A stretch of 41,157 nucleotides of DNA from a virus (Duplodnaviria; Heunggongvirae; Uroviricota; Caudoviricetes). Of this stretch, positions 29,997 through 41,157 are shown in pieces. Below the pieces are notes generated by a model. It was given only the letters and a program-made list of their open reading frames with translations, made no database searches and was not told where the DNA came from. Position numbers and translations under genes: made by a program. The stretch's first letter is position 1. Every line of letters starts with the position of its first letter. The stretch lies in the IMG/VR virus record IMGVR_UViG_2648501336_000006, positions 1-41,157 of that record; one strand, written 5' to 3'.

Positions 29997-31340
29997 ATGG
30001 CTACTTGGCAACAAGGAATCAACTCAGGCGGTTTTCTTGCTGGCATTGGTGCGCAAAACGAGAATGCGCCAAAGGCAAGCGACGTTAACGCAACGCTTGG
30101 TCTGATCCGCGAAAACAATGAACTGGCTCGCTCAGGTGCAAATAACGTTGGTCTGACCGCGTTACGTGGTCTGGCTGGAGTTGCTGATATTTATAAGCAG
30201 GAACAGCAACAGAAAGCGATTAATGCGTTCAATAAGGTTCATGCTGATGCATGGGCTTCTGGTGATCCATCGGGACTATTTAAGTTTGCCCAGGAAAATC
30301 CAGCGTTTGTTGCACAGGCACAACAGGCATTTTCCGGTCTTAATGAGCAGCAACGCAACGATATGGGCGATTTAGCCATGAGGGCTAACGTCGCTCTTTC
30401 TCAGGGACCGGAAGCCTACAGTAAATTCATTACTGACAACAAGGACAGGTTAAATCGCGTGGGAGCGAATGCTGACTGGATGATTCAGACAGGTATTCAG
30501 AATCCAGAGCAGCTATCACACATGCTGACCACTATGACGCTAGGGGCTGTTGGCCCGGATAAAATGCTGGATTATCAGGATAAGATGGTTGGTCGCCAAC
30601 TTGAGAAAGGGCGATTGGATGAAAGCATCCGTCAGGCTGACATGGAGAACGCGAGAGGATGGGCAAATATCCAAAACGCTCAACTAGACAGGGCTCAGCG
30701 GGCACAAATGCACTCAGATGAGATGGGATTGAAGCTAATGGAGCTGGGGCAAAAAGGTAAGCCGTCAGCAGACTTAATTAAGGGATTAAATTCTGATATT
30801 ACCAATTTTGGCAAAAATTATAACTCTGTCAGAGCGGCGGCAAACTCTCTGCAAGCCCTTAGCAAGGTAAATACTGGCGCTGCCCAACTTGGGATTATCT
30901 TTAATTACATGAAGTCTCTCGACCCTCAGTCAGTTGTTCGCGAAGGTGAACAGGTTCAGGTCATGCGCTCTGATGGCATATGGGGGCAGATAAAAGGATA
31001 TGTAGACCAGCTTAATGCAGGGAATGGCTTGTCACAGGAAGCGAGGGATAACATTGTTAACGCAGCCAAAATTAACGCCAACGCTATGGGGCAGCAGTTT
31101 AACCAGCAGGTAGACGAATATCTGGATACGTATGGAGATACTATTCCTCAAGGGCTGAAAAAAAGCTTAGGGAGAAGGAAGGCCAAGCTATTTGACGATG
31201 TCCCAGCGCAGCCTACACCACAAGGTGGTAATGGGCAGACAAAAGCTGCGCCAAGTGGGATATCAGAAGGCGCGACGGCAACGAACCCTAAAACTGGTCA
31301 GAAACTCATTTATAGGAACGGACAATGGCAACCGATGTAG
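29997..31340 (+). CDS. Ejection protein (gp20-like), 447 aa
   Basis: N-terminus [12 protein letters not shown] resembles P22 gp20 as recalled; position. Confidence 0.75.
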
Positions 31341-33493
31341 GTTTACCCGAAGGATTTGTTCTCGATAATCAGCCTGATAACTCACAGCTTCCTGATGGTT
31401 TTGTGCTTGATTCCCAACCAGAACAGCAGCAATCTCCTTTGGTTTCACCAGAGGAAAATTCCCGACAGGAAAATGTTGTTAATAATGCTAACGGTTTCGA
31501 CCGTTTTATGTATGGCGTTCTCAGTGGATTGATGGATGTTGGTAAAGGTGTTGGCCTGTTTCAGGATATGACACCAGAAGAGCAAGCCGCAATTCAGTCT
31601 CTACAGCAGAAGTTAGCGGCAAAACCATCAACCGCACAAGATGTTGGTGAGTTCGTTGGACAAGCAGCGCCATTTGTTAGTGGCGGTGGGATTATTTCTC
31701 AGGTTCCCAAAGGGGCGGCAAGGCTGGCTGCCGCCGCAGGGCTTGGTGCGGTTGAAGGTGGTGTTGTTGCTAACGGAACCGGTGGCAATGTAACTACAGG
31801 GGCGACTATAGGTGCTGCCGCTGGTCCAATTGCTGAATTGGCATCTCCAGTGATTAGTAAAGCAGTCAGTGCGGTTACGAAGAGGTTTAGGCCTCCATCG
31901 GCAGAAATGTCTCAGGCATCTGAACTTAGTGGAATGGCGAAGGTTGCAACGAAAGCTACAGATGTGAATCCAATAACAGGAAACAGATCTGGTTTGAATG
32001 CTCTCGCGGAAGCTGTTTCACCAGATGATTCTGTGCTACAGGCCGCCCGCAATCTTGGGATGGAGGATGCCTTAACTCCCGGCATGTACTCCAGCAACCC
32101 TTCTTACCGCGCGTTTGAAAATGCTTTAGCTGCAACCCCAGGTAATAAACTGTTCCACGCACAGAGAGAGGCCATTAGTAGGCTTGGAGAGCAGGCAGAT
32201 AAATTTATTAATGATTTTGGTGGGAGCGTTGATAAGGACTTTATCAATCAAAAGGTAAAAAGCTCTTATGAGGAGTTAAGATCAAAACTGAAGCGCCAAG
32301 AAGACACTCTATACAATCAAATTAGAGCAAAAATTCCAACCAGAGCTACCGTAGATACCTCCCATACCACTAACGCCATTGAGGATATTGCAGATGATGT
32401 CGGTGGGCTAGAAAAACTAAAATCTCTATATCCTCAACTGTCAAAGACCTTGGAACAAATAGACCCAAACACCGCCCCGACTTATGGTCTTCTTGATGCA
32501 GTTCGACGGCAGGTTGGAAGGGCTCTTGGCAAAGAGATGGATAAAGGGCCATATAGCGGCATCGACGCTCGGCACCTTGGAATTCTTGAAAGCGCACTGA
32601 TACAAGATCAAGGAGCCGCTGCTGCCAAATATGGTGCAGAGGATACATGGAATTTAGCTAGAGAGATCGGGAGAAAGAGATTCGCAGTACAGGCAGCCGC
32701 CATTCAAAATCTTGGCAGAGACCTGGATAAAGGAATAGTGCCGCAATTGCAGCAAGCTATCGTCGACATGTCTCAAGGAAAGGGCGGTGACTTCCGTCGC
32801 CTAGTTTCAAATCTTCCTGATGACATGGTGCAACCAGCTGTTGCCACCGCAATGAATAGGGCTTTCACTACGTTCGCTAAATCTCCCGGGCAGTCACTCG
32901 GTGTTCCTGGATTTGTTAAGTGGTATGGAGGTCTATCAAGAAACAAATCAAATATGCAGGCATTGAGCCGGGCAATTGGCTATCCGGCTACGCGTAGGTT
33001 GAGAAACATCTATGAGGTGGCTTCTGGCATGCAAAGGGTGGGCAGCGAGAAGGTGTATTCCTCCTCTCAAATTGACCGGATGATGAATCAGTTCGCAGGA
33101 GAGAAGGGAATGCTTGGGCGTATATATGGAATAGGAAAAGACGTGGCTAAAGCAGAGGGGCTAACCACTGCCATCGGAGCGCCGGGAGCCGGTACGGCAG
33201 GAGTACTCTTTAGCCTACTCCGTTCTGGTAAAAACTCAAGAATGGCTGCCGCTGATGAATTAATAGCATCTCCGGCTTTTAAAAATCTCTCAAAAAGGAT
33301 TGCCGCAGGTCACGCCAGCACTCCAGCCTCTAGGAAATCGGTGGATGCTTCAATGAAGAAAGTGAAACCATATAGGGATTGGGTAAATACGCTATCAGCG
33401 GACGAGAAGAAAAATCTAGCCCGCGTTGGTATTGTCGCTTTTCTCAGTAGTAACGATTCTTTGCCCACAGAGCAACAAGCAGGGCAACAATAA
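31325..33493 (+). CDS. Ejection protein (gp16-like), 722 aa
   Basis: Position after gp20; large low-complexity protein; overlaps gp20 stop. Confidence 0.7.
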
Positions 33494-33538: not shown

Positions 33539-33838
33539 CTATTCTGACATCCTTTTTAATTTATTGTATGACTCTATAGAATCTGTGCACAACTTCATGA
33601 ACTCTTGAAGTGACATTCCTAGGCGAGAAATTTCCGTATTCAAAAAACGTTCAATAAATTCATCTCCGCCTGGCATCTGGGTTGCTTCTTGAAAAGCAAA
33701 CATTTGTTTAAATGTTCCACACATACCAGCAACTTTAGCTGTAACTAACATGTCGTTAGCAAATTTCAGATCCTTATCTTGCGATTGTGCAAGACCACTA
33801 ATTAGAAAACAGAATGCACCTATAACCCATCGCTTCAC
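33539..33838 (-). CDS. Small secreted protein (99 aa) with Sec signal peptide, antisense to the virion operon
   Basis: GTG start with GGAGG 5 nt upstream; signal peptide KRWVIGAFCFLISGLAQS-QD; AT-rich context. Confidence 0.55.
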   Translation of the reverse strand: MKRWVIGAFCFLISGLAQSQDKDLKFANDMLVTAKVAGMCGTFKQMFAFQEATQMPGGDEFIERFLNTEISRLGMSLQEFMKLCTDSIESYNKLKRMSE

Positions 33839-34219
33839 ACCAACCTCCAACCTCCTTAGTTTTGAGCAGGATACCAGATGATACTTTATTGGTGGAGTGG
33901 TGTGTGAAAACGTGTCAACGACAAACCATCCACAACTTGGACGAATGATTTAGCAAAAAGTGCTATTTTTGGTGTTTAGTGTCATAGAAAAGTGAATAGC
34001 TCACTTTTCAACATTGCATGAAACTTGCAGGAAATGTGACATTACCTTATAGGTAACTTCGGCGAAAATGCAGTAAATGTGAAACGTAATGATTTAAACG
34101 TGTCGAGAAAGTGGTTGTAAGTTAGCCTCTGAAGGATTGATGACAGCTTTGTTATGGTATTAAATGCAACTTGACACAGTTGTATACATAGCTGCGGCTA
34201 TCAAGATGGAGGTATGTTT

Positions 34220-34663
34220 ATGCTCACTTGTTTTGATGTCGCCGACTACTTCTTGGCGCATTGCGATGAAGAAAGTGGCGACATTATCTCTAACCTAAAA
34301 ATTCAGAAGTTGACGTATTATGCCCAAGGGTTTTCTCTGGTTCTTCTGGGTAAGCCGCTATTTAATGAGAAAATTGAAGCCTGGATGCATGGGCCAGTAG
34401 TTCCTGAATTGTATCGTAAATATAGGGACTGTGGTAACGGAGCTTTACCTGCGCCAGAAAACTTTGACGCTAAAAAATTCAGTGAAGATGAAATTGAATT
34501 GCTGGATGAGGTGTATAAAGTTTATGGTCAGTTTTCTGCCTGGAAACTGCGCAATATGACTCACGAAGAGCAGCCATGGAAAGATGCTTACATTGAGGGT
34601 GCGGTTAGCCAAGAAATCACACTTGATTCTATGAAAGGTTTTTTCAAAACGTTAATTAACTGA
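34220..34663 (+). CDS. Panacea (DUF4065)-like domain protein, putative antitoxin-type component, 147 aa
   Basis: Motifs KIQKLTYYAQGFSL...GKPLF.E.IEAWMHGPVVPELY recalled as typical of DUF4065/GepA/SocA-like proteins; GGAGG SD 7 nt upstream of ATG 34220. Confidence 0.55.
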   Translation: MLTCFDVADYFLAHCDEESGDIISNLKIQKLTYYAQGFSLVLLGKPLFNEKIEAWMHGPVVPELYRKYRDCGNGALPAPENFDAKKFSEDEIELLDEVYKVYGQFSAWKLRNMTHEEQPWKDAYIEGAVSQEITLDSMKGFFKTLIN

Positions 34664-34668
34664 CGTGT

Positions 34669-35091
34669 ATGTCTAGAGTTAAGGGAAGAATAAAACAGAG
34701 GGATAAAGAGAGCTCTGCTACTGTTGGCCTCTCTATCCATCACGAATCTCATGATGTAGACAAAAGTCCGCCTGTATTTTCTCTTAGATACCTACAAAAG
34801 GGGTATTGCCTGGATTGCTGCCAAAAGCATGAAAAGGCAGCATTTGCAGATAGGCTGTTCAGGTTAAGTCAGATGTCATGGGATGAGATACGAAAATCTG
34901 ATAAACACGGACTTGGGACGGAAAAAATTGCCAGAAACGCGATAAAGGCTCCGATTCCTAAGCATGTTACTCAAGATGTGGATTTCATTGCGTTCAGGTT
35001 TTGCTCTAAGGCACCTATGGTTGGTTATAAGATTGGAGCCACTTTTTATGTCTTATGGCTCGACAGGGAGTTCAAGCTATACAAGCACTAA
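34669..35091 (+). CDS. Unknown 140-aa basic protein, operon partner of the Panacea-like gene
   Basis: ATG 5 nt after the upstream stop; followed by a terminator; no domain recognised. Confidence 0.55.
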   Translation: MSRVKGRIKQRDKESSATVGLSIHHESHDVDKSPPVFSLRYLQKGYCLDCCQKHEKAAFADRLFRLSQMSWDEIRKSDKHGLGTEKIARNAIKAPIPKHVTQDVDFIAFRFCSKAPMVGYKIGATFYVLWLDREFKLYKH

Positions 35092-35095
35092 TAAA

Positions 35096-35122
35096 ACCCA
35101 CCGTCAGGTGGGTTTTTTATCT
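35096..35122 (+). terminator. Intrinsic terminator after the two-gene cargo operon (hairpin shared with convergent gene)
   Basis: ACCCACC-GTCA-GGTGGGT followed by TTTTTTAT. Confidence 0.75.
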
Positions 35123-35370
35123 TCTCCGTACATGCTGCTGAGAGTCTTAAGAAGAGCCTCCCTAAATTTTTCAGATTCTTGTTGAGCAAAACCTTCTATC
35201 GATCTTGGTGATTTTTCTTCATCAATAGCGGCTTGCAAGATCATAACTATTTCTGAATTTAATGAACGACCGTTTCTCGATGCCCTTATGGTCAAGTCGC
35301 GCTTGAGGCTATCTGGCATTCTTACGCTATATGGGGCTATGTCTCTAACCTTTGTTTTCATCGTTGCCAT
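35104..35370 (-). CDS. Ribbon-helix-helix (Arc/Mnt family) DNA-binding protein, 88 aa
   Basis: RMPDSLKRDLTIRASRNGRSLNSEIV motif (NGRS.NSEI) characteristic of Arc/Mnt RHH repressors. Confidence 0.7.
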   Translation of the reverse strand: MATMKTKVRDIAPYSVRMPDSLKRDLTIRASRNGRSLNSEIVMILQAAIDEEKSPRSIEGFAQQESEKFREALLKTLSSMYGEDKKPT

Positions 35371-35602
35371 ACATGCATTTCAACTTCTCAACATCATGCT
35401 CAAGATCTATCAATCGTGATGCTATAGTTGCAAGATCTAGTGCTTGAATGTGTTTGTTTTTTTCGGTCCATGCTTCAAGTGCTGCGACCATCTCAGCATT
35501 TAATGAACGAGAATTAGCCTCAGCCAGTTCAATAAGACGTTCCTTTATCTCTACAGGAAGCCTCAGATTCACTTGAGGGTTTTTGTACTTACGATCAGAC
35601 AT
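35345..35602 (-). CDS. Mnt-like ribbon-helix-helix repressor, 85 aa (positional mnt)
   Basis: NLRLPVEIKERLIELAEANSRSLNAEMV; divergent from the arc-ant promoter; overlaps downstream RHH gene by 26 nt. Confidence 0.7.
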   Translation of the reverse strand: MSDRKYKNPQVNLRLPVEIKERLIELAEANSRSLNAEMVAALEAWTEKNKHIQALDLATIASRLIDLEHDVEKLKCMYGNDENKG

Positions 35603-35648
35603 CGGCGCATCCTGAATAAATTTTTACCACAGGATATGTAGGTATCTA

Positions 35649-35677
35649 TTGACTATCAATGCGTACCTAAATACTAT
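35649..35677 (+). promoter_or_regulatory. Pant-like promoter (TTGACT-17-TACTAT) with flanking imperfect palindromes
   Basis: Hexamers at 35649-35654 and 35672-35677; repeated GCGTACC motifs nearby. Confidence 0.55.
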
Positions 35678-35707
35678 GTATGCGTACCACATACAACGGA
35701 GGACGCA

Positions 35708-35848
35708 ATGAAGGTAAAAACACTGCGTATGCCAGAGAAGTTAGAAAAAATCCTTGAAGAGAAAGCAAAGGAAGAGTGTCGCTCATTTAGCGCAGAAGTA
35801 ATTAAACGGGTGATGGACAGCCTGAAGAGAGAGGGGATAACGGTGTGA
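35708..35848 (+). CDS. Arc-like ribbon-helix-helix repressor, 46 aa
   Basis: Hand-translated MKVKTLRMPEKLEKILEEKAKEECRSFSAEVIKRVMDSLKREGITV; GGAGG SD 6 nt upstream; below ORF-track cutoff. Confidence 0.6.
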   Translation: MKVKTLRMPEKLEKILEEKAKEECRSFSAEVIKRVMDSLKREGITV

Positions 35849-36080
35849 TTCGCTTGGATGCAGTAGTCAAAGAGATTGCGATTACCATTTTAAGACCAAA
35901 TTTTGTTCATGGCGAATCATTTGGCACGAACGAAAAATTGAGAAGAGAAAGAGTATTCAGTGGCAAGCGCACGTTTTCAGAAGTGATGCTTGATGCGGCA
36001 AAGAAATCAAAACAGTGAAGCCCCAACTGCTGGAACAGTCAGGGCTTCGGTTGTCGGTAAATCCGTGGAGAAAAACCAAC

Positions 36081-36983
36081 ATGAATAGTATAGCAATTTT
36101 AGAAGCAGTGAACACCTCTTACGTACCATTCAACGGTCAGCAAATTATCACCGCCATGGCTGCCGGAGTTGCATATGTTGCGATGAAGCCAATCGTTGAA
36201 AACCTTGGAATGAGCTGGTCAACGCAGCAAACAAAACTCATGAAGCAGATTAGCAAATTCAACTGTGTTCATATGAACATGGTTGCCGCTGATGGAAAGC
36301 TTCGTAAGCTACTCTGCCTTCCTTTGAAGAAGTTAAATGGATGGCTGTTCAGCATCAACCCTGAGAAAGTTCGTGCTGACATCCGCGATAAACTGATTCA
36401 GTACCAGGAAGAATGCTTTACTGTGCTGCATGACTACTGGACAAAGGGAAAGGCAGAAAATACACGTAAGAAAACATCTGTTGATGACAGGACTCCGCTT
36501 CGTGATGCTGTAAATATGCTGGTCAGCAAAAAGCATCTAATGTACCCAGAAGCTTATGCAATGATTCATCAGCGTTTCAATGTGGAAAGTATTGAAGAGC
36601 TTGATGCATCTCAGATACCGCAAGCCGTAGAGTACATCCACAGGGTAGTGCTTGAAGGTGAGTTCATCGGCAAACAAGAGAAGAAAACCAACGAGCTTTC
36701 TGCAAAAGAAGCAAACAGCCTTGTATGGCTATGGGATTATGCCAACCGCTCACAGGCATTATTCCGCGAACTGTATCCGGCATTAAAACAAATTCAATCG
36801 AACTATTCCGGCAGATGTCATGACTGCGGTTATGAGTTCTCCCGTATTATCGATATAGCGAGAGACGTTTTAATTAATCACACACGAGATGTTGATATCA
36901 ATGAGCCAGACGGACCAACGAATCTTTCCGCATGGATGAGGCTTAAGAATAAAGAATTGCCGCCTTCTGTTCATCTGTATTAA
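36081..36983 (+). CDS. ant: Antirepressor Ant (P22 Ant type), 300 aa
   Basis: ORF track start is GTG; ATG at 36081 gives 300 aa, the P22 Ant length; N-terminus [22 protein letters not shown] recalled as P22 Ant. Confidence 0.8.
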
Positions 36984-37066
36984 TGACGCATCTGGCGGTG
37001 AAAAAAACCGCCAGTGTGCTGCTGGCGGCCTATGTCACACCCTTACTACCACATAAGGAATGCCTA

Positions 37067-37795
37067 ATGACTTTTAAGAATGTAGCAAACATCGGATCCG
37101 TTGTCACGGATAAAACCATTGACAGCCAGCGCCTGCTTGAGATGGTAAATCAGGCTCGTAGACAGTGCGGTGAGCCGGAGGTTCGTAATAACAAATTCAT
37201 CGAGAAAATTGAAGATGAATTGGATGGAGAGCACTACACAAAAAGTGTAGTGCAAAAAGCGAACAAAACTTCGATGGTTATCATTGAGATGTCAATCAAG
37301 CAAGCATTGCGAGTTGCCGCTCGCGAGTCAAAAGCCGTTCGCCGCTCACTGGTAGACCAACTTGAAAGTATGCAAGAAGCGCACATTAAAAGCGGTAAAT
37401 CAGCGAGTGGACTTGTTGAGTATCGTCAAGCGCGAACATTGAAAATGACGGTTGAAGCTGTTACCAATCTGTTCGATCTGATGCCAAATCTTGCGCCGGA
37501 AGCAAAGCAGACTGCTGCAGCAAGCATAATCAACCCGCTCGTTGGTTTTAATGCAATACCTCTTCCGGCAATAGAAGAGCATTACTACTCAGCAGGGGAG
37601 GTTGCAGAGCAGCTTGGAGTAACGGCCAACAAGATTGGTCGCATTGCTAACGCAAACAACCTCAAAACTGAGCAGTACGGGAAGTTCTTCCTGGATAAAT
37701 CTGCGCATTCCAGCAAACAGGTGGAAGCATTCCGCTACAATGAGGAAGGCGTTAAAGCACTACAACACCTGCTACATGGCTCAAATGTGGCGTAA
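37067..37795 (+). CDS. Hypothetical protein downstream of ant (242 aa)
   Basis: ATG at 37067 with AAGGAA SD; followed by a bidirectional terminator; no domain recognised. Confidence 0.5.
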   Translation: MTFKNVANIGSVVTDKTIDSQRLLEMVNQARRQCGEPEVRNNKFIEKIEDELDGEHYTKSVVQKANKTSMVIIEMSIKQALRVAARESKAVRRSLVDQLESMQEAHIKSGKSASGLVEYRQARTLKMTVEAVTNLFDLMPNLAPEAKQTAAASIINPLVGFNAIPLPAIEEHYYSAGEVAEQLGVTANKIGRIANANNLKTEQYGKFFLDKSAHSSKQVEAFRYNEEGVKALQHLLHGSNVA

Positions 37796-37814
37796 CATTT
37801 TATAATGAAAACTA

Positions 37815-37840
37815 AACCCGCTTAATCGCGGGTTTTTTCT
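37815..37840. terminator. Bidirectional terminator hairpin between the ant-region gene and the convergent Mnt-like gene
   Basis: ACCCGC-TTAATC-GCGGGT followed by TTTTTTCTTTCC on plus; A/T-rich on the other side. Confidence 0.65.
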
Positions 37841-38079
37841 TTCCTTAGAATTTCAGCCGCAACTTCTTTTACTCGTTCCGAGATTAATGAGGCCAGCCTC
37901 TCTTCTTCATCACGATACCCGCTTACAGGTGATGGTTTGGAGAGTGATTCTTCCATCGTAGCCACAATTTCGGAATTGATAGACCTGTTATTCATTTTTG
38001 CACGCTGCTTAATCTTAGCGTGCAACTCGTGTGTAAGCCTCAAGTGGAACTGCGCCTCATCGTATTTGCTGTACATCAT
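37822..38079 (-). CDS. Second Mnt-like ribbon-helix-helix repressor, 85 aa, divergent from the tailspike gene
   Basis: FHLRLTHELHAKIKQRAKMNNRSINSEIVATMEESLSKPSPVSGYRDEEERLA closely parallels P22 Mnt (RSMNSELLQIVQDALSKPSPVTGYRNDAERLA) as recalled. Confidence 0.8.
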   Translation of the reverse strand: MMYSKYDEAQFHLRLTHELHAKIKQRAKMNNRSINSEIVATMEESLSKPSPVSGYRDEEERLASLISERVKEVAAEILRKEKTRD

Positions 38080-38211
38080 CAATGCCTCACCAAATGGGTG
38101 GAATGGCATCGTAAAACCCACTGTACAAATCAACAATCGTACCGTTTCGGTATGTAACAAATGCCAACCGTAGCCATGCTGCGGCCATTCCTTGTATCTG
38201 GAGCAAATTAA

Positions 38212-41157
38212 ATGACAGACATTACAGCCAATGTTGTAGTGAGTATGCCTTCGCAACTCTTCACTATGGCGCGTTCTTTTAAAGCCGTAGCCAATGGCAA
38301 AATTTATATCGGAAAAATTGACACTGACCCGGTAAATCCTGAAAACCAGATTCAGGTTTATGTAGAGAACGAAGATGGATCTCACGTTCCTGTTTCTCAA
38401 CCAATCATCATTAACGCTGCTGGATATCCGGTATATAACGGACAGATTGCCAAATTCGTTACCGTGCAAGGCCATTCTATGGCTGTTTATGATGCGTATG
38501 GTGCGCAGCAGTTCTATTTTCCTAATGTGCTGAAGTATGATCCTGATCAGTTACGGCAGCAATTAGAAGACACAGATGGAGCGAATAAATACCCAAAACT
38601 TCAGATAGCAAGATGGAGAGACAGTTATGATGTAAGAGGTTGGGGGGCTATTGGTGATGGTGTTCATGATGACACATCAGCTCTATCAGAATTACTTTCT
38701 GTTGCAACAGGTGGTGAAAAGATAGATGGGCGAGGGCTTACTTTTAAAGTATCAACTCTTCCAGATGTCAGTCGATTTAAAAATGCTCGTTTTTTATTTG
38801 AGAGAATACCGGGTCAGCCTCTTTTTTATGCTTCTGAAGATTTTATCCAGGGAGAGTTATTTAAAATTACAGATACACCGTGGTACAACGCCTGGACGCA
38901 GGATAAAACGTTTGTATATGACAATGTCATCTATGCGCCTTTTATGGCTGGAGACCGCCATGGTGTAAATAACCTCCATGTTGCATGGGTTCGCTCAGGA
39001 GATGACGGGAAGACCTGGACAACGCCGGAATGGCTTACAGATTTACATGAAAACTATCCCACAGTTAACTATCACTGCATGAGTATGGGGGTTGTCAGAA
39101 ATCGCCTTTTTGCTGTAATTGAGACGCGGACCGTGAGCGGAAATAAACTGCAGGTTGCAGAGTTGTGGGATCGCCCAATGAGTCGCAGCCTTCGCGTTTA
39201 TGGTGGTATAACGAAAGCAGCAAATCAGCAAGTCGCTTATATTCGCATTACTGATCACGGATTATTTGCTGGTGATTTTGTCAACTTCTCAAACTCTGGT
39301 GTTACAGGTGTTACCGGGAATATGACGGTGACTACTGTCATTGATAAAAATACTTTTACAGTTACGACGCAAAATACCCAGGATGTGGATCAGAATAACG
39401 AGGGTAGATACTGGAGTTTTGGTACATCATTTCACTCGTCACCATGGAGAAAAACCAGTCTTGGAACTATTCCTTCTTTTGTTGACGGAAGCACTCCTGT
39501 TACTGAGATTCACAGTTTTGCGACGATTAGCGATAACAGTTTTGCTGTTGGCTACCATAATGGTGATATTGGTCCACGCGAGCTTGGGATACTCTATTTC
39601 TCTGATGCTTTCGGTTCTCCTGGTAGCTTTGTTCGCAGACGCATACCTGTAGAATATGAGGCGAATGCATCTGAGCCATGTGTAAAATATTATGATGGCA
39701 TTCTGTATCTGACGACCAGGGGGACATTAAGTACTCAACCCGGTAGTTCATTGCACAGAAGCTCTGATTTAGGTACATCATGGAATTCTCTTCGCTTCCC
39801 AAATAATGTTCATCACTCAAACCTTCCTTTTGCCAAAGTTGGCGATGAGCTGATTATTTTTGGCAGTGAGCGCGCATTTGGTGAGTGGGAAGGAGGAGAA
39901 CCTGATAACCGTTATGCAGGAAATTATCCAAGAACATTTATGACCAGAGTTAACGTCAATGAGTGGAGTCTGGATAATGTAGAGTGGGTTAATGTTACTG
40001 ATCAGATTTATCAGGGCGGAATAGTTAACTCTGCGGTTGGTGTTGGTTCAGTTTGTATCAAAGACAACTGGCTGTACTACATTTTCGGTGGGGAAGACTT
40101 TCTAAACCCATGGAGCATAGGGGATAACAACAGAAAATATCCTTATGTTCACGATGGTCACCCGGCTGATTTGTATTGTTTCAGGGTGAAAATTAAACAG
40201 GAAGAATTTGTTTCAAGGGATTTTGTCTACGGAGCCACTCCTAACAGAACGCTTCCTACTTTTATGTCGACGTCAGGCGTGAGGACGGTTCCTGTACCCG
40301 TTGATTTCACAGATGATGTTGCCGTCCAGTCACTGACTGTCCATGCCGGTACATCAGGACAAGTTCGCGCGGAAGTCAAACTTGAGGGTAATTACGCCAT
40401 TATTGCGAAGAAAGTACCGTCTGATGATGTTACCGCTCAGAGATTAATCGTTAGCGGCGGTGAAACAACGTCTTCAGCAGATGGTGCAATGATAACGTTG
40501 CATGGTTCCGGAAGCAGTACTCCACGTCGCGCGGTATATAACGCACTCGAACATCTTTTTGAGAACGGAGATGTTAAACCTTATCTTGATAATGTAAATG
40601 CTCTTGGTGGTCCGGGAAACAGGTTCTCGACAGTTTATCTTGGCTCCAATCCTGTGGTTACCAGTGACGGAACATTAAAGACAGAGCCGGTCTCTCCTGA
40701 CGAAGCATTGCTGGATGCCTGGGGTGACGTCAGGTATATCGCTTATAAATGGCTGAACGCTGTCGCTATAAAGGGAGAAGAAGGGGCGAGGATACATCAT
40801 GGTGTAATCGCGCAGCAACTTCGTGATGTTCTTATTTCTCACGGACTCATGGAAGAAGAAAGCACAACATGCCGCTATGCCTTTCTTTGCTATGACGATT
40901 ATCCCGCAGTATATGATGACGTCATTACTGGCCAAAGGGAAATTCCGCTGACTGATAATGACGGGAGCATCATTGTTGATGAGGATGATAATCCAGTGAT
41001 GGTAATGGAAGACATCATTGAGCGCGTTGAAATAACGCCAGCAGGATCTAGATGGGGAGTCAGACCTGATCTCTTATTCTATATCGAGGCAGCATGGCAG
41101 CGCAGAGAAATAGAGAGAATAAAAGCTAGGTTAGACTTAATAGAAGGGAAGCACTAA
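38212..41157 (+). CDS. Tailspike: P22-type head-binding domain + endosialidase-like beta-propeller + C-terminal intramolecular chaperone domain, 981 aa
   Basis: N-terminus [43 protein letters not shown] matches P22 gp9 head-binding domain; Asp-boxes SGDDGKTW and SSDLGTSW; C-terminal SDGTLK (Ser818/Lys823) resembles the autoproteolytic S/K dyad of endosialidase chaperone domains. Confidence 0.85.

Follow-up and report, generated by a model that had tools for sequence, protein, structure and literature searches.

A probable orphan Mnt cassette, self-regulating and of predicted new operator specificity, beside the tailspike gene of a P22-like phage or prophage

Lone mnt genes and the right-hand end of the variable region

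In phage P22, Mnt represses arc and ant (PMC11016777), and Pant and Pmnt are divergent promoters that overlap (PMC2724298). The variable 'ant moron' of P22-like phages includes types with mnt only (Villafane et al. 2008; PMC2629481), the lone mnt by gene 9 being that of the Salmonella phages ST64T, L, ST104, ST160 and SE1; this arrangement has been described previously (PMC2629481; 10.1101/2020.10.05.325894), and the phage L genome paper gives the function of the lone mnt as unknown (10.1101/2020.10.05.325894). The gene considered here, mnt3, resembles the P22 gene in the family and two-domain build of its product, in being transcribed against the late operon, and in a 17-bp two-fold symmetric operator (here a predicted one) placed one base from the -35 of its own leftward promoter, but P22 has arc/ant and an active Pant beyond the operator, whereas the mnt3 cassette lacks both and its Pant counterpart appears decayed. 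With the ST64T type it shares an identical layout, in which mnt on the opposite strand is separated from the tailspike gene by about 135 bp, and a homologous leader, promoter and operator position; the ST64T-type mnt, however, is the sole repressor in its region, with no arc/ant elsewhere between gene 16 and gene 9, whereas mnt3 coexists with a complete immI, in which mntA, mntB, an arc-like gene, sar and ant are present.

The window, that is, the whole stretch of 41,157 nucleotides analysed (IMG/VR record IMGVR_UViG_2648501336_000006), is a CUS-3-type phage or prophage of the P22-like group (Lederbergvirus), and its relevant features are listed in Table 1. The first-pass annotation had placed mnt3 after ant and an unknown gene (the 242-aa orf242), divergent from and 5' of the tailspike gene, and the open reading frame coordinates agree; the 132-bp spacer that it reported (38080-38211, tailspike ATG at 38212) and the perfect palindrome TACCGTTTCGGTA within it at 38140-38152 are likewise present. 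By position, it is the other two Mnt-like genes (35104-35602) that correspond to P22 mnt here, and the window has its own Arc-like gene.

Table 1. Coordinates of the variable region, the mnt3 cassette and the tailspike gene in the window
Feature	Position	Strand	Remarks
DNA-transfer gene	31325-33493		left border of variable region
hkcB-like gene	33539-33850	-	
SocA/Panacea-domain gene and partner	34214-35091	+	
mntA, Mnt-like gene	35104-35370	-	
mntB, Mnt-like gene	35345-35602	-	
Arc-like gene	35708-35848	+	
orf57	35845-36018	+	
sar antisense RNA	36014-36080	-	RF00262, 83.9 bits
ant	36081-36983	+	epsilon34-like
orf242	37067-37795	+	first gene of right-hand module; 242 aa; convergent with mnt3
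Bidirectional intrinsic terminator	37814-37835	both	AAACCCGC-ttaatc-GCGGGTTT; between orf242 and mnt3
mnt3	37822-38079	-	85 aa; divergent from tailspike gene
mnt3 Shine-Dalgarno sequence	38085-38091	-	GGTGAGG; 5 or 8 nt from two candidate ATGs
Predicted -10 of mnt3 promoter	38108-38113	-	TACGAT; colinear with P22 Pmnt TATCAT
Predicted -35 of mnt3 promoter	38131-38136	-	TTGTTG; 17 nt to -10
Predicted Mnt3 operator, 17 bp	38138-38154		CGTACCG-TTT-CGGTATG (CGTACC-N5-GGTATG); palindrome as core
Tailspike leader	38166-38211	+	'boundary sequence' bsq1 of CUS-3 record
Tailspike gene	38212-41157	+	continues past window end

On the left of mnt3, the product of orf242 matches PHROG phrog_1726, 'anti-repressor', over its full length (E 1.8e-101), a Pfam profile search returned no family match for it, and it is predicted to be an anti-repressor; of the 87 related loci, about 50 have orf242 adjoining mnt3. 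The terminator between the two genes, which overlaps the last codons of mnt3 and corresponds to inverted repeat I7, is positive in a terminator scan on both strands, with T6 after the plus-strand arm and a T-rich minus-strand tail, and it is kept in the JEP4, VSe13 and Citrobacter copies. On the right, the tailspike leader contains a hairpin (CCGTAGC-CAT-GCTGCGG, 38168-38184) and a Shine-Dalgarno sequence (GGAG, 38200-38203) and is 96% identical to the region 5' of gene 9 in P22, HK620, CUS-3 and others; judged by these comparisons, this leader, the last 46 bp before the ATG, is outside the mnt3 cassette. The tailspike itself combines a P22-type head-binding N-terminus with an endosialidase-like body, as in CUS-3, and its N-terminal 119 aa share 98% identity with the CUS-3 tailspike (siaK1 endosialidase in that record).

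About 120 related loci were compared overall: 219 relatives were found in IMG/VR, the best 80 of which were examined together with 39 loci retrieved by the DNA operator pattern (among the 119 matches listed in the pattern scan, the other 80 were chance matches in unrelated contigs), and 87 cassettes were compared for geometry; a scan of genome contigs for the cassette gave 3 loci only. Among the best 80 of 219 relatives and the 39 listed pattern loci, the cassette abuts a P22-type tailspike N-terminus in all but few, and in all but three of the 87 loci mnt lies directly 5' of and divergent from the tailspike gene, with about 130 bp that end in the leader. Phages ST64T, ST160, Sf101, IME10, VSe13 and JEP4 have the cassette immediately to the left of the tailspike gene and in divergent orientation, and phage L also carries this layout; in Sf101 and IME10 the mnt homologue is the lone gene between gene 16 and the tailspike gene, and ST64T and ST160 form a distant class (51-56% protein identity, 135-bp spacer). 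About 100 of 5,426 complete E. coli genomes have the cassette, under the PGAP name 'Arc family DNA-binding protein', and in JEP4 the gene is annotated as 'regulatory protein mnt', just before the tailspike region. A repressor beside the tailspike gene is, in short, a common and already annotated layout of P22-like prophages and forms the usual right end of their variable 'ant moron'; the position of mnt3 is not an unusual one and recurs in nearly all of the roughly 120 loci and in the six phages just named.

The origin of the third Mnt-like gene follows from the same comparisons. The same cassette, with the same operator class and place and with 62-98% protein identity, is found in JEP4 (gp19), VSe13, Sf101, IME10 and E. 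coli prophages; JEP4 also shares orf242, and the whole stretch 37001-38165 is 93-97% identical to JEP4. The left-hand neighbours differ: in JEP4 they comprise a C2-like repressor together with genes of the Rha and KilA types, and here a CUS-3-type immI with an epsilon34-like ant. In CUS-3 ant leads straight to the tailspike leader, orf242 and mnt3 being absent. The earlier suggestion that immI had been duplicated or rearranged holds in its second part, since the region is a mosaic of a CUS-3-type immI joined to a JEP4-type module that CUS-3 lacks, and fails in its first: Mnt3 is only 41% identical to the mntB product over 39 aa and 30% identical to that of mntA over 56 aa, which excludes a recent duplicate of either gene, and this low identity (30-41%), together with the separate JEP4-like module, indicates that the third Mnt is not a duplication.

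The Mnt3 protein and its predicted operator

The translation of mnt3 (MMYSKYDEAQFHLRL...KEKTRD) has 85 aa, and a second ATG at 38076, which would give 84 aa, is the start in most homologues; the Shine-Dalgarno region GGTGAGGCAT is kept in every cassette type, ST64T included. A longer product from the in-frame ATG at 38109 was ruled out, this codon being out of frame in several homologues, with indels in the leader. Mnt3 matches the Pfam Arc family (PF03869) with E 3.2e-15 and 56 bits (cutoff 20.4), and the solved structure that it matches best is that of Mnt (PDB 1MNT, E 9.4e-16); these two matches settle the ribbon-helix-helix fold as a prediction from homology. The identity to P22 Mnt is 45% over 73 aa and covers both the DNA-binding and the C-terminal domains, the alignment extending through residue 79 (SKPSPV.GYR..ERLA....E.VK), and a C-terminal domain homologous to Mnt residues ~52-76, the tetramerisation region that marks Mnt as against Arc, is recognizable in the Mnt3 sequence. 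P22 Arc shares the fold and the Pfam family with Mnt3 but is without this C-terminal tetramerisation helix, and the Arc operator is situated within Pant, between -35 and -10. The remaining Mnt-like proteins of the window are more distant from P22 Mnt (33% for the 88-aa protein; 42% over 36 aa only for the other 85-aa protein), so that Mnt3 is indeed the closest of the three, as first proposed from the sequence alone, and to judge from these alignments it is a genuine relative of the P22 Mnt repressor.

The palindrome in the spacer is, by itself, not beyond chance. When the 132-bp spacer was shuffled 2,000 times with dinucleotides preserved and perfect palindromes with 5-bp arms and a spacer of 0-6 nt were counted, 53% of the shuffled sequences held at least one comparable palindrome, and the window has on average 0.96 such 5-bp-arm palindromes per 132 bp. 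The significance comes entirely from comparative evidence. In all 87 cassettes, a 17-bp element lies in the same register, 1 nt from the -35 of the leftward promoter. In the mnt3 class its consensus is C(A/G)TACC-N5-GGTAC(G/T); the outer TACC/GGTA positions are invariant save in three single-locus variants, one of which is a pseudogene copy, whereas positions 7 and 11, the inner pair through which the palindrome of the window is perfect, change freely with no compensating substitution (G/C, G/T, T/C, T/T, A/T; for example, TACCA/AGGTA in VSe13 and TACCA/CGGTA in Sf101). When 12 diverse representatives are aligned, the region between about 38159 and the start codon is well conserved, with a sharp drop to about 50% distal to the operator, so the conserved unit ends a few bases past the predicted operator. 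The element holds two (G/A)TAC half-site cores whose centres are 11 bp apart, and 11 bp is the spacing of the two dimers for Arc and Mnt; P22 Arc binds as two dimers with half-sites ~11 bp apart, and a similar arrangement is predicted for Mnt3.

That the palindrome arose by chance, or forms an RNA hairpin within the leader of the tailspike gene, instead of serving as a protein site, is scarcely credible on this evidence, even with a comparable palindrome in about half of the shuffled spacers, because the outer positions stay invariant between cassettes in which synonymous sites are saturated, while the uncompensated changes of the inner pair fit a protein site and disfavour an RNA stem; moreover, a T-run 3' of the palindrome and an Rfam match at its position were both absent, and the hairpin or terminator reading was discarded. 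The palindrome is, on the comparative data, very probably the core of the binding site of Mnt3 itself, and the Mnt3 operator can be predicted with confidence from comparison. With a matrix derived from 15 different variants of the operator, the top score in the window is at 38138 (24.6), the next being 13.1 at 35662.

The type of operator changes together with the N-terminal domain of the protein. In the class of this phage, the N-terminus MYSKYDEAQFHLRL goes with the operator consensus given above; in the ST64T class, MGRDDPQFNLRLP goes with AAGACCAC(A/G)GTGGTCTT (in ST64T itself, AAGACCAC-G-GTGGTCTT); and in P22, the operator that accompanies ARDDPHFNFRMP is AGGTCCAC-G-GTGGACCT. All three specificity classes keep an identical operator register. 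The recognition strand of Mnt3 is Q-F-H-L-R-L, as against H-F-N-F-R-M in P22 Mnt. Natural chimeras separate the two domains of the protein: five loci (L079-L083) combine an ST64T-type N-terminus with an mnt3-type C-terminus and have an ST64T-type operator, and another (L062) combines an mnt3 N-terminus with a P22-type C-terminus and has an mnt3-type operator, from which it follows that the operator type goes with the DNA-binding domain.

Both the gene and its control region are strongly conserved. The dN/dS of mnt3 is 0.02-0.17 over all comparisons, and against cassettes with 56-67% synonymous difference the non-synonymous difference is 3-4% (dN/dS 0.02-0.03); over the N-terminal 45 codons, pN is 0.01-0.08 at pS 0.43-0.89, and the stretch from the operator to the -10 is 79-98% identical across those comparisons, in which the synonymous difference is 43-89%. 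The open reading frame is intact in 86 of 87 loci, the sole pseudogene being the Citrobacter copy, with TAG at codon 5 and one operator arm mutated too. The gene is under strong purifying selection.

Promoters of the spacer and the question of tailspike control

The elements of the cassette follow one another in a fixed order, namely the 17-bp element, 1 nt, TTGTTG (or TTGTGA/TTGAGT), 15-17 nt, TA(C/T)GAT, the GGTGAGG leader and the ATG, and the order in P22 is AGGTCCACCGTGGACCT, A, TTGAGA, 17 nt, TATCAT, a stretch that the epsilon34 record labels Pmnt/Pant. The predicted -35 of mnt3 is the positional homologue of TTGAGA in P22 Pmnt and of TTGTGG in ST64T, and the -10 position reads TACGAT or TATGAT in 87 of 87 cassettes. 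Scored with a simple sigma-70 position weight matrix (percentiles against random 100-nt pieces of the window), TTGTTG-17-TACGAT reaches 8.0 (94th percentile) and is the best leftward promoter in the spacer; with the same matrix, P22 Pant scores 15.5 and Pmnt 13.1. The predicted promoter is weak, with 7 of 12 consensus matches, and was missed by a promoter scan demanding 9 of 12. Because three cassette subtypes have only 15 nt between -35 and -10, the promoter call could be wrong, or the promoter may be activator-dependent. The spacer between the two hexamers is also more conserved than such spacers normally require, and an overlapping second function, for example a weak rightward promoter, may reside in it.

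Rightward transcription from the spacer is much harder to find. The best rightward promoter scores 3.9 (48th percentile), the positions homologous to the -35 and -10 of Pant read ATGGCA and CAAATC in the window, and ST64T, which aligns gap-free with P22 Pant, has TCGGCA for TTGACA and TATATC for TATATT, so that the Pant counterpart is, as read from these alignments, decayed in both the mnt3 and the ST64T cassettes. The predicted operator is located upstream of the promoter of mnt3 itself; no strong divergent Pant-like promoter overlapped by the operator and driving arc/ant was found in the spacer, and what follows the operator is the tailspike gene. The strong plus-strand terminator downstream of orf242 would, in addition, halt transcripts coming from ant before they reach the tailspike gene. 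The first-pass annotation had suggested repressor control of the tailspike, but with a rightward score at the random level, decayed Pant positions and a terminator in between, a tailspike promoter under Mnt3 control is unsupported by the sequence.

Nevertheless, the possibility that Mnt3 turns off a rightward spacer promoter into the tailspike gene in the lysogen, as P22 Mnt does on Pant, has points in its favour: the operator occupies the place of Omnt relative to Pant in P22, the cassette adjoins the tailspike gene in nearly every locus, and Villafane et al. speculated on an effect of Mnt and Arc on P22 tailspike levels (PMC2629481). The unusual conservation of the promoter spacer and the Sf101-type cassettes, in which ATGGCA-17-AATACT at the Pant-homologous position scores 5.7, keep it alive at low probability. 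We regard it as unlikely, given that the best rightward score in the window equals the median of random sequence with CAAATC at the Pant-homologous -10, that -11 A and -7 T occur together in no frame, that the Serratia copy has an intrinsic terminator between the operator and the tail gene, and that operator and tailspike ATG are a variable ~45 to >62 nt apart, with a linker that is not conserved in sequence. The near-invariant adjacency to the tailspike gene may still reflect a functional link to it.

Possible targets and meaning of the orphan cassette

No consistent second copy of the operator was found in the window or in the related loci, and there is apparently a single operator, as in P22. 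Several candidates were considered and set aside: TACC-N5-GGTA, whose one further occurrence in the window is at 34043, scores no more than 5.1 there on the operator matrix and is part of the mobile orf149/orf140 module; CTACCATATTGGTAG, though repeated in many loci, falls within the coding sequence of gene 16; GATATCAATTTGGTATG lies within a membrane-protein gene; and CGTACCTAAATACTATG at 35662, inside Pant (13.1), is also present in CUS-3, which has no mnt3.

A target in other phages was also considered, in the form that Mnt3 represses ant of superinfecting or co-resident relatives with the same operator and so protects the prophage from induction. This would correspond to the role of P22 Mnt, which acts against superinfecting P22, and it would account for a DNA-binding domain and an operator that are strongly selected though the local target is not visible. 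The distribution of the operator makes it distinctly improbable, however: among the matches listed, this operator type stands before arc/ant in none of the roughly 120 loci, and an arrangement of mnt3 followed by arc-ant was not seen in the best 80 of 219 relatives or the 39 listed pattern loci; in the JEP4-type Pant, with which mnt3 is most commonly partnered, the palindrome is another one (ATGACATCA-TGG-TGATGTCAT) and nothing resembling the operator was detected; and the half-match in the Pant of the window is the one shared with CUS-3.

Decay of the Pant homologue, the lack of a target in the window and related loci, and the existence of one pseudogene copy could also be taken to mean that the cassette is a decaying immI remnant, left after the loss of arc and ant and with no present function, an idea raised as one possibility for phage L (10.1101/2020.10.05.325894). 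A remnant is very hard to reconcile with 86 of 87 intact reading frames, dN/dS of 0.02-0.17 at saturated synonymous divergence, a promoter and operator conserved far above synonymous sites, and an operator and recognition domain that have diversified together into at least three classes, and we consider it highly improbable.

The reading that we favour, and hold to be probable, is that mnt3 belongs to an orphan Mnt cassette which regulates itself, whose operator specificity is predicted to be new, and which was acquired by modular exchange. The cassette (mnt3 and the upstream 75 bp) would be a self-contained unit of terminator, gene, leader, promoter and operator, descended from the mnt-Pmnt/Omnt/Pant control region of a P22-type immI. 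Mnt3 is expected to form a ribbon-helix-helix dimer, and a tetramer through its C-terminal helix by analogy with P22 Mnt, and would bind 38138-38154 with one dimer per (G/A)TAC core, as the operator comparison suggests. Transcription of mnt3 probably starts near 38101, and bound Mnt3 would regulate the weak promoter of its own gene, whose -35 lies one base away; the 1-base gap between operator and -35 in three classes, with Pant decayed in two of them, favours a direct effect of Mnt3 on RNA polymerase. P22 Mnt is said, in work by Vershon et al. from 1987, to stimulate Pmnt in vitro, and stimulation of the mnt3 promoter is for this reason somewhat likelier than repression. The rightward partner promoter, which in P22 is Pant, leading into arc-ant, has decayed, and since this counterpart is lost and arc-ant is absent beyond the operator, the tailspike gene is most likely transcribed only by antiterminated read-through of the late operon and not from the spacer. 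The cassette presumably came by modular exchange together with orf242 and now stands beside a separate and complete CUS-3-type immI with two Mnt-like genes, an arc-like gene, sar and ant.

A repressor that regulates itself alone is an unsatisfying end point. Orphan Mnt cassettes of the GTAC-core and ST64T classes, strongly selected yet with no ant gene to control, may do a job that has not been described, either by setting how much late or read-through transcription passes into the tailspike gene, whether in lysogens or soon after infection, or by acting in trans on other phages; we put this forward tentatively and consider it rather doubtful, but, if true, it would answer the question posed by phage L as to what a lone Mnt does. 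What is new is limited to the predicted operator specificity and to a sharper form of the lone-Mnt question, in that these cassettes appear to have lost the promoter that they controlled and yet are strongly conserved beside the tailspike gene. As a naturally occurring Mnt, Mnt3 would recognize an operator of new specificity, and with this operator it offers a testable prediction of a new repressor-operator pair in the well-studied Arc/Mnt family. The natural chimeras assign the specificity to the N-terminal domain, and the pair may be of use for the study or engineering of ribbon-helix-helix specificity.

Control region and gene content of the CUS-3-type immI

In the immI control region (35603-35707), a palindrome occupies the same position as Omnt, the Mnt operator of P22, and three GTAY boxes are spaced by exactly 21 bp (see table); these are probably where the Arc-like protein or the product of one of the Mnt-like genes, mntA or mntB, binds. 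Among the boxes, CGTACC is similar to the half-site predicted for Mnt3, the Mnt-family repressor encoded beside the tailspike gene. The CUS-3-type immI does include a gene for an Arc-like protein of 46 aa (match to Pfam Arc at E 2.9e-9), which lies in the stretch 35708-36080 together with the sar antisense RNA (RF00262, 83.9 bits; 36014-36080, minus strand); the only label for the matching stretch in the CUS-3 record is 'bsq2 boundary sequence', and CUS-3 has been said to be without arc (2008 epsilon34 paper).

Sequence features of the window
Feature	Sequence	Position	Location
Perfect 15-bp palindrome	TTACCTtatAGGTAA	34042-34056	About 160 bp upstream of SocA/Panacea module
GTAY box	GGTATC	35641-35646	immI control region
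GTAY box	CGTACC	35662-35667	immI control region
GTAY box	CGTACC	35683-35688	immI control region
Pant of canonical immI	TTGACT, 17 nt, TACTAT	35649-35654, 35672-35677	immI control region
19-bp palindrome	TGTATG-CGTACCA-CATACA	35677-35695	immI control region
Hairpin	CTGGCGGT-GAAAAAA-ACCGCCAG	36992-37014	Shortly after ant stop codon
Small stem	CACC...GGTG	38092-38101	Minus-strand leader of mnt3
Hairpin	CCGTAGC-CAT-GCTGCGG	38168-38184	Conserved tailspike leader ('boundary sequence'), 38166-38211

Stems and hairpins in the leaders and beside ant

Among P22-like phages, the stem of the tailspike-leader hairpin remains paired where G:C is replaced by G:U or U:G by C:G, a pattern compatible with a structured element in the tailspike mRNA, although 16 sequences showed only one fully compensatory pair. 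The stem in the mnt3 leader covers the Shine-Dalgarno sequence in part, and ST64T carries CACTT...AAGTG at the equivalent position, which hints at conservation of a hairpin in this leader. The hairpin after ant has no T-run beside it on either strand; homology to the JEP4-type module, which comprises mnt3 and the predicted anti-repressor gene orf242, starts in its loop, at 37001, and the hairpin therefore marks where the recombination joint lies.

Exchange and loss of modules

In natural Mnt chimeras (loci L079-L083 and L062), DNA-binding domains at the N-terminus and tetramerisation domains at the C-terminus have been recombined independently of each other; at least four types take part, and the exchange point falls at approximately residues 45-55, around SKPSPV. 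The Citrobacter copy of the mnt3 cassette (L009, 5940-6010) is a pseudogene, with codon 5 changed from TAC to TAG, and is the only one in which the promoter-proximal operator arm is AGTAC in place of GGTAC. At 34214-35091, a gene whose product has a SocA/Panacea antitoxin domain (Pfam, E 2e-24) and its 140-aa partner, of unknown family, are possibly a toxin-antitoxin or defence pair; in L062, this module and its upstream palindrome directly adjoin mnt3. In P22, the spacer between ant and gene 9 (L004, 3217-3347) holds a remnant of orf242, 35 nt long and identical at 30/35 positions to window 37234-37268 (translation NELEGETYKKIVGRKANKITSEKVV), with a direct copy of the boundary sequence on either side; an ancestor of P22 must therefore have had the orf242 anti-repressor module at the same place.
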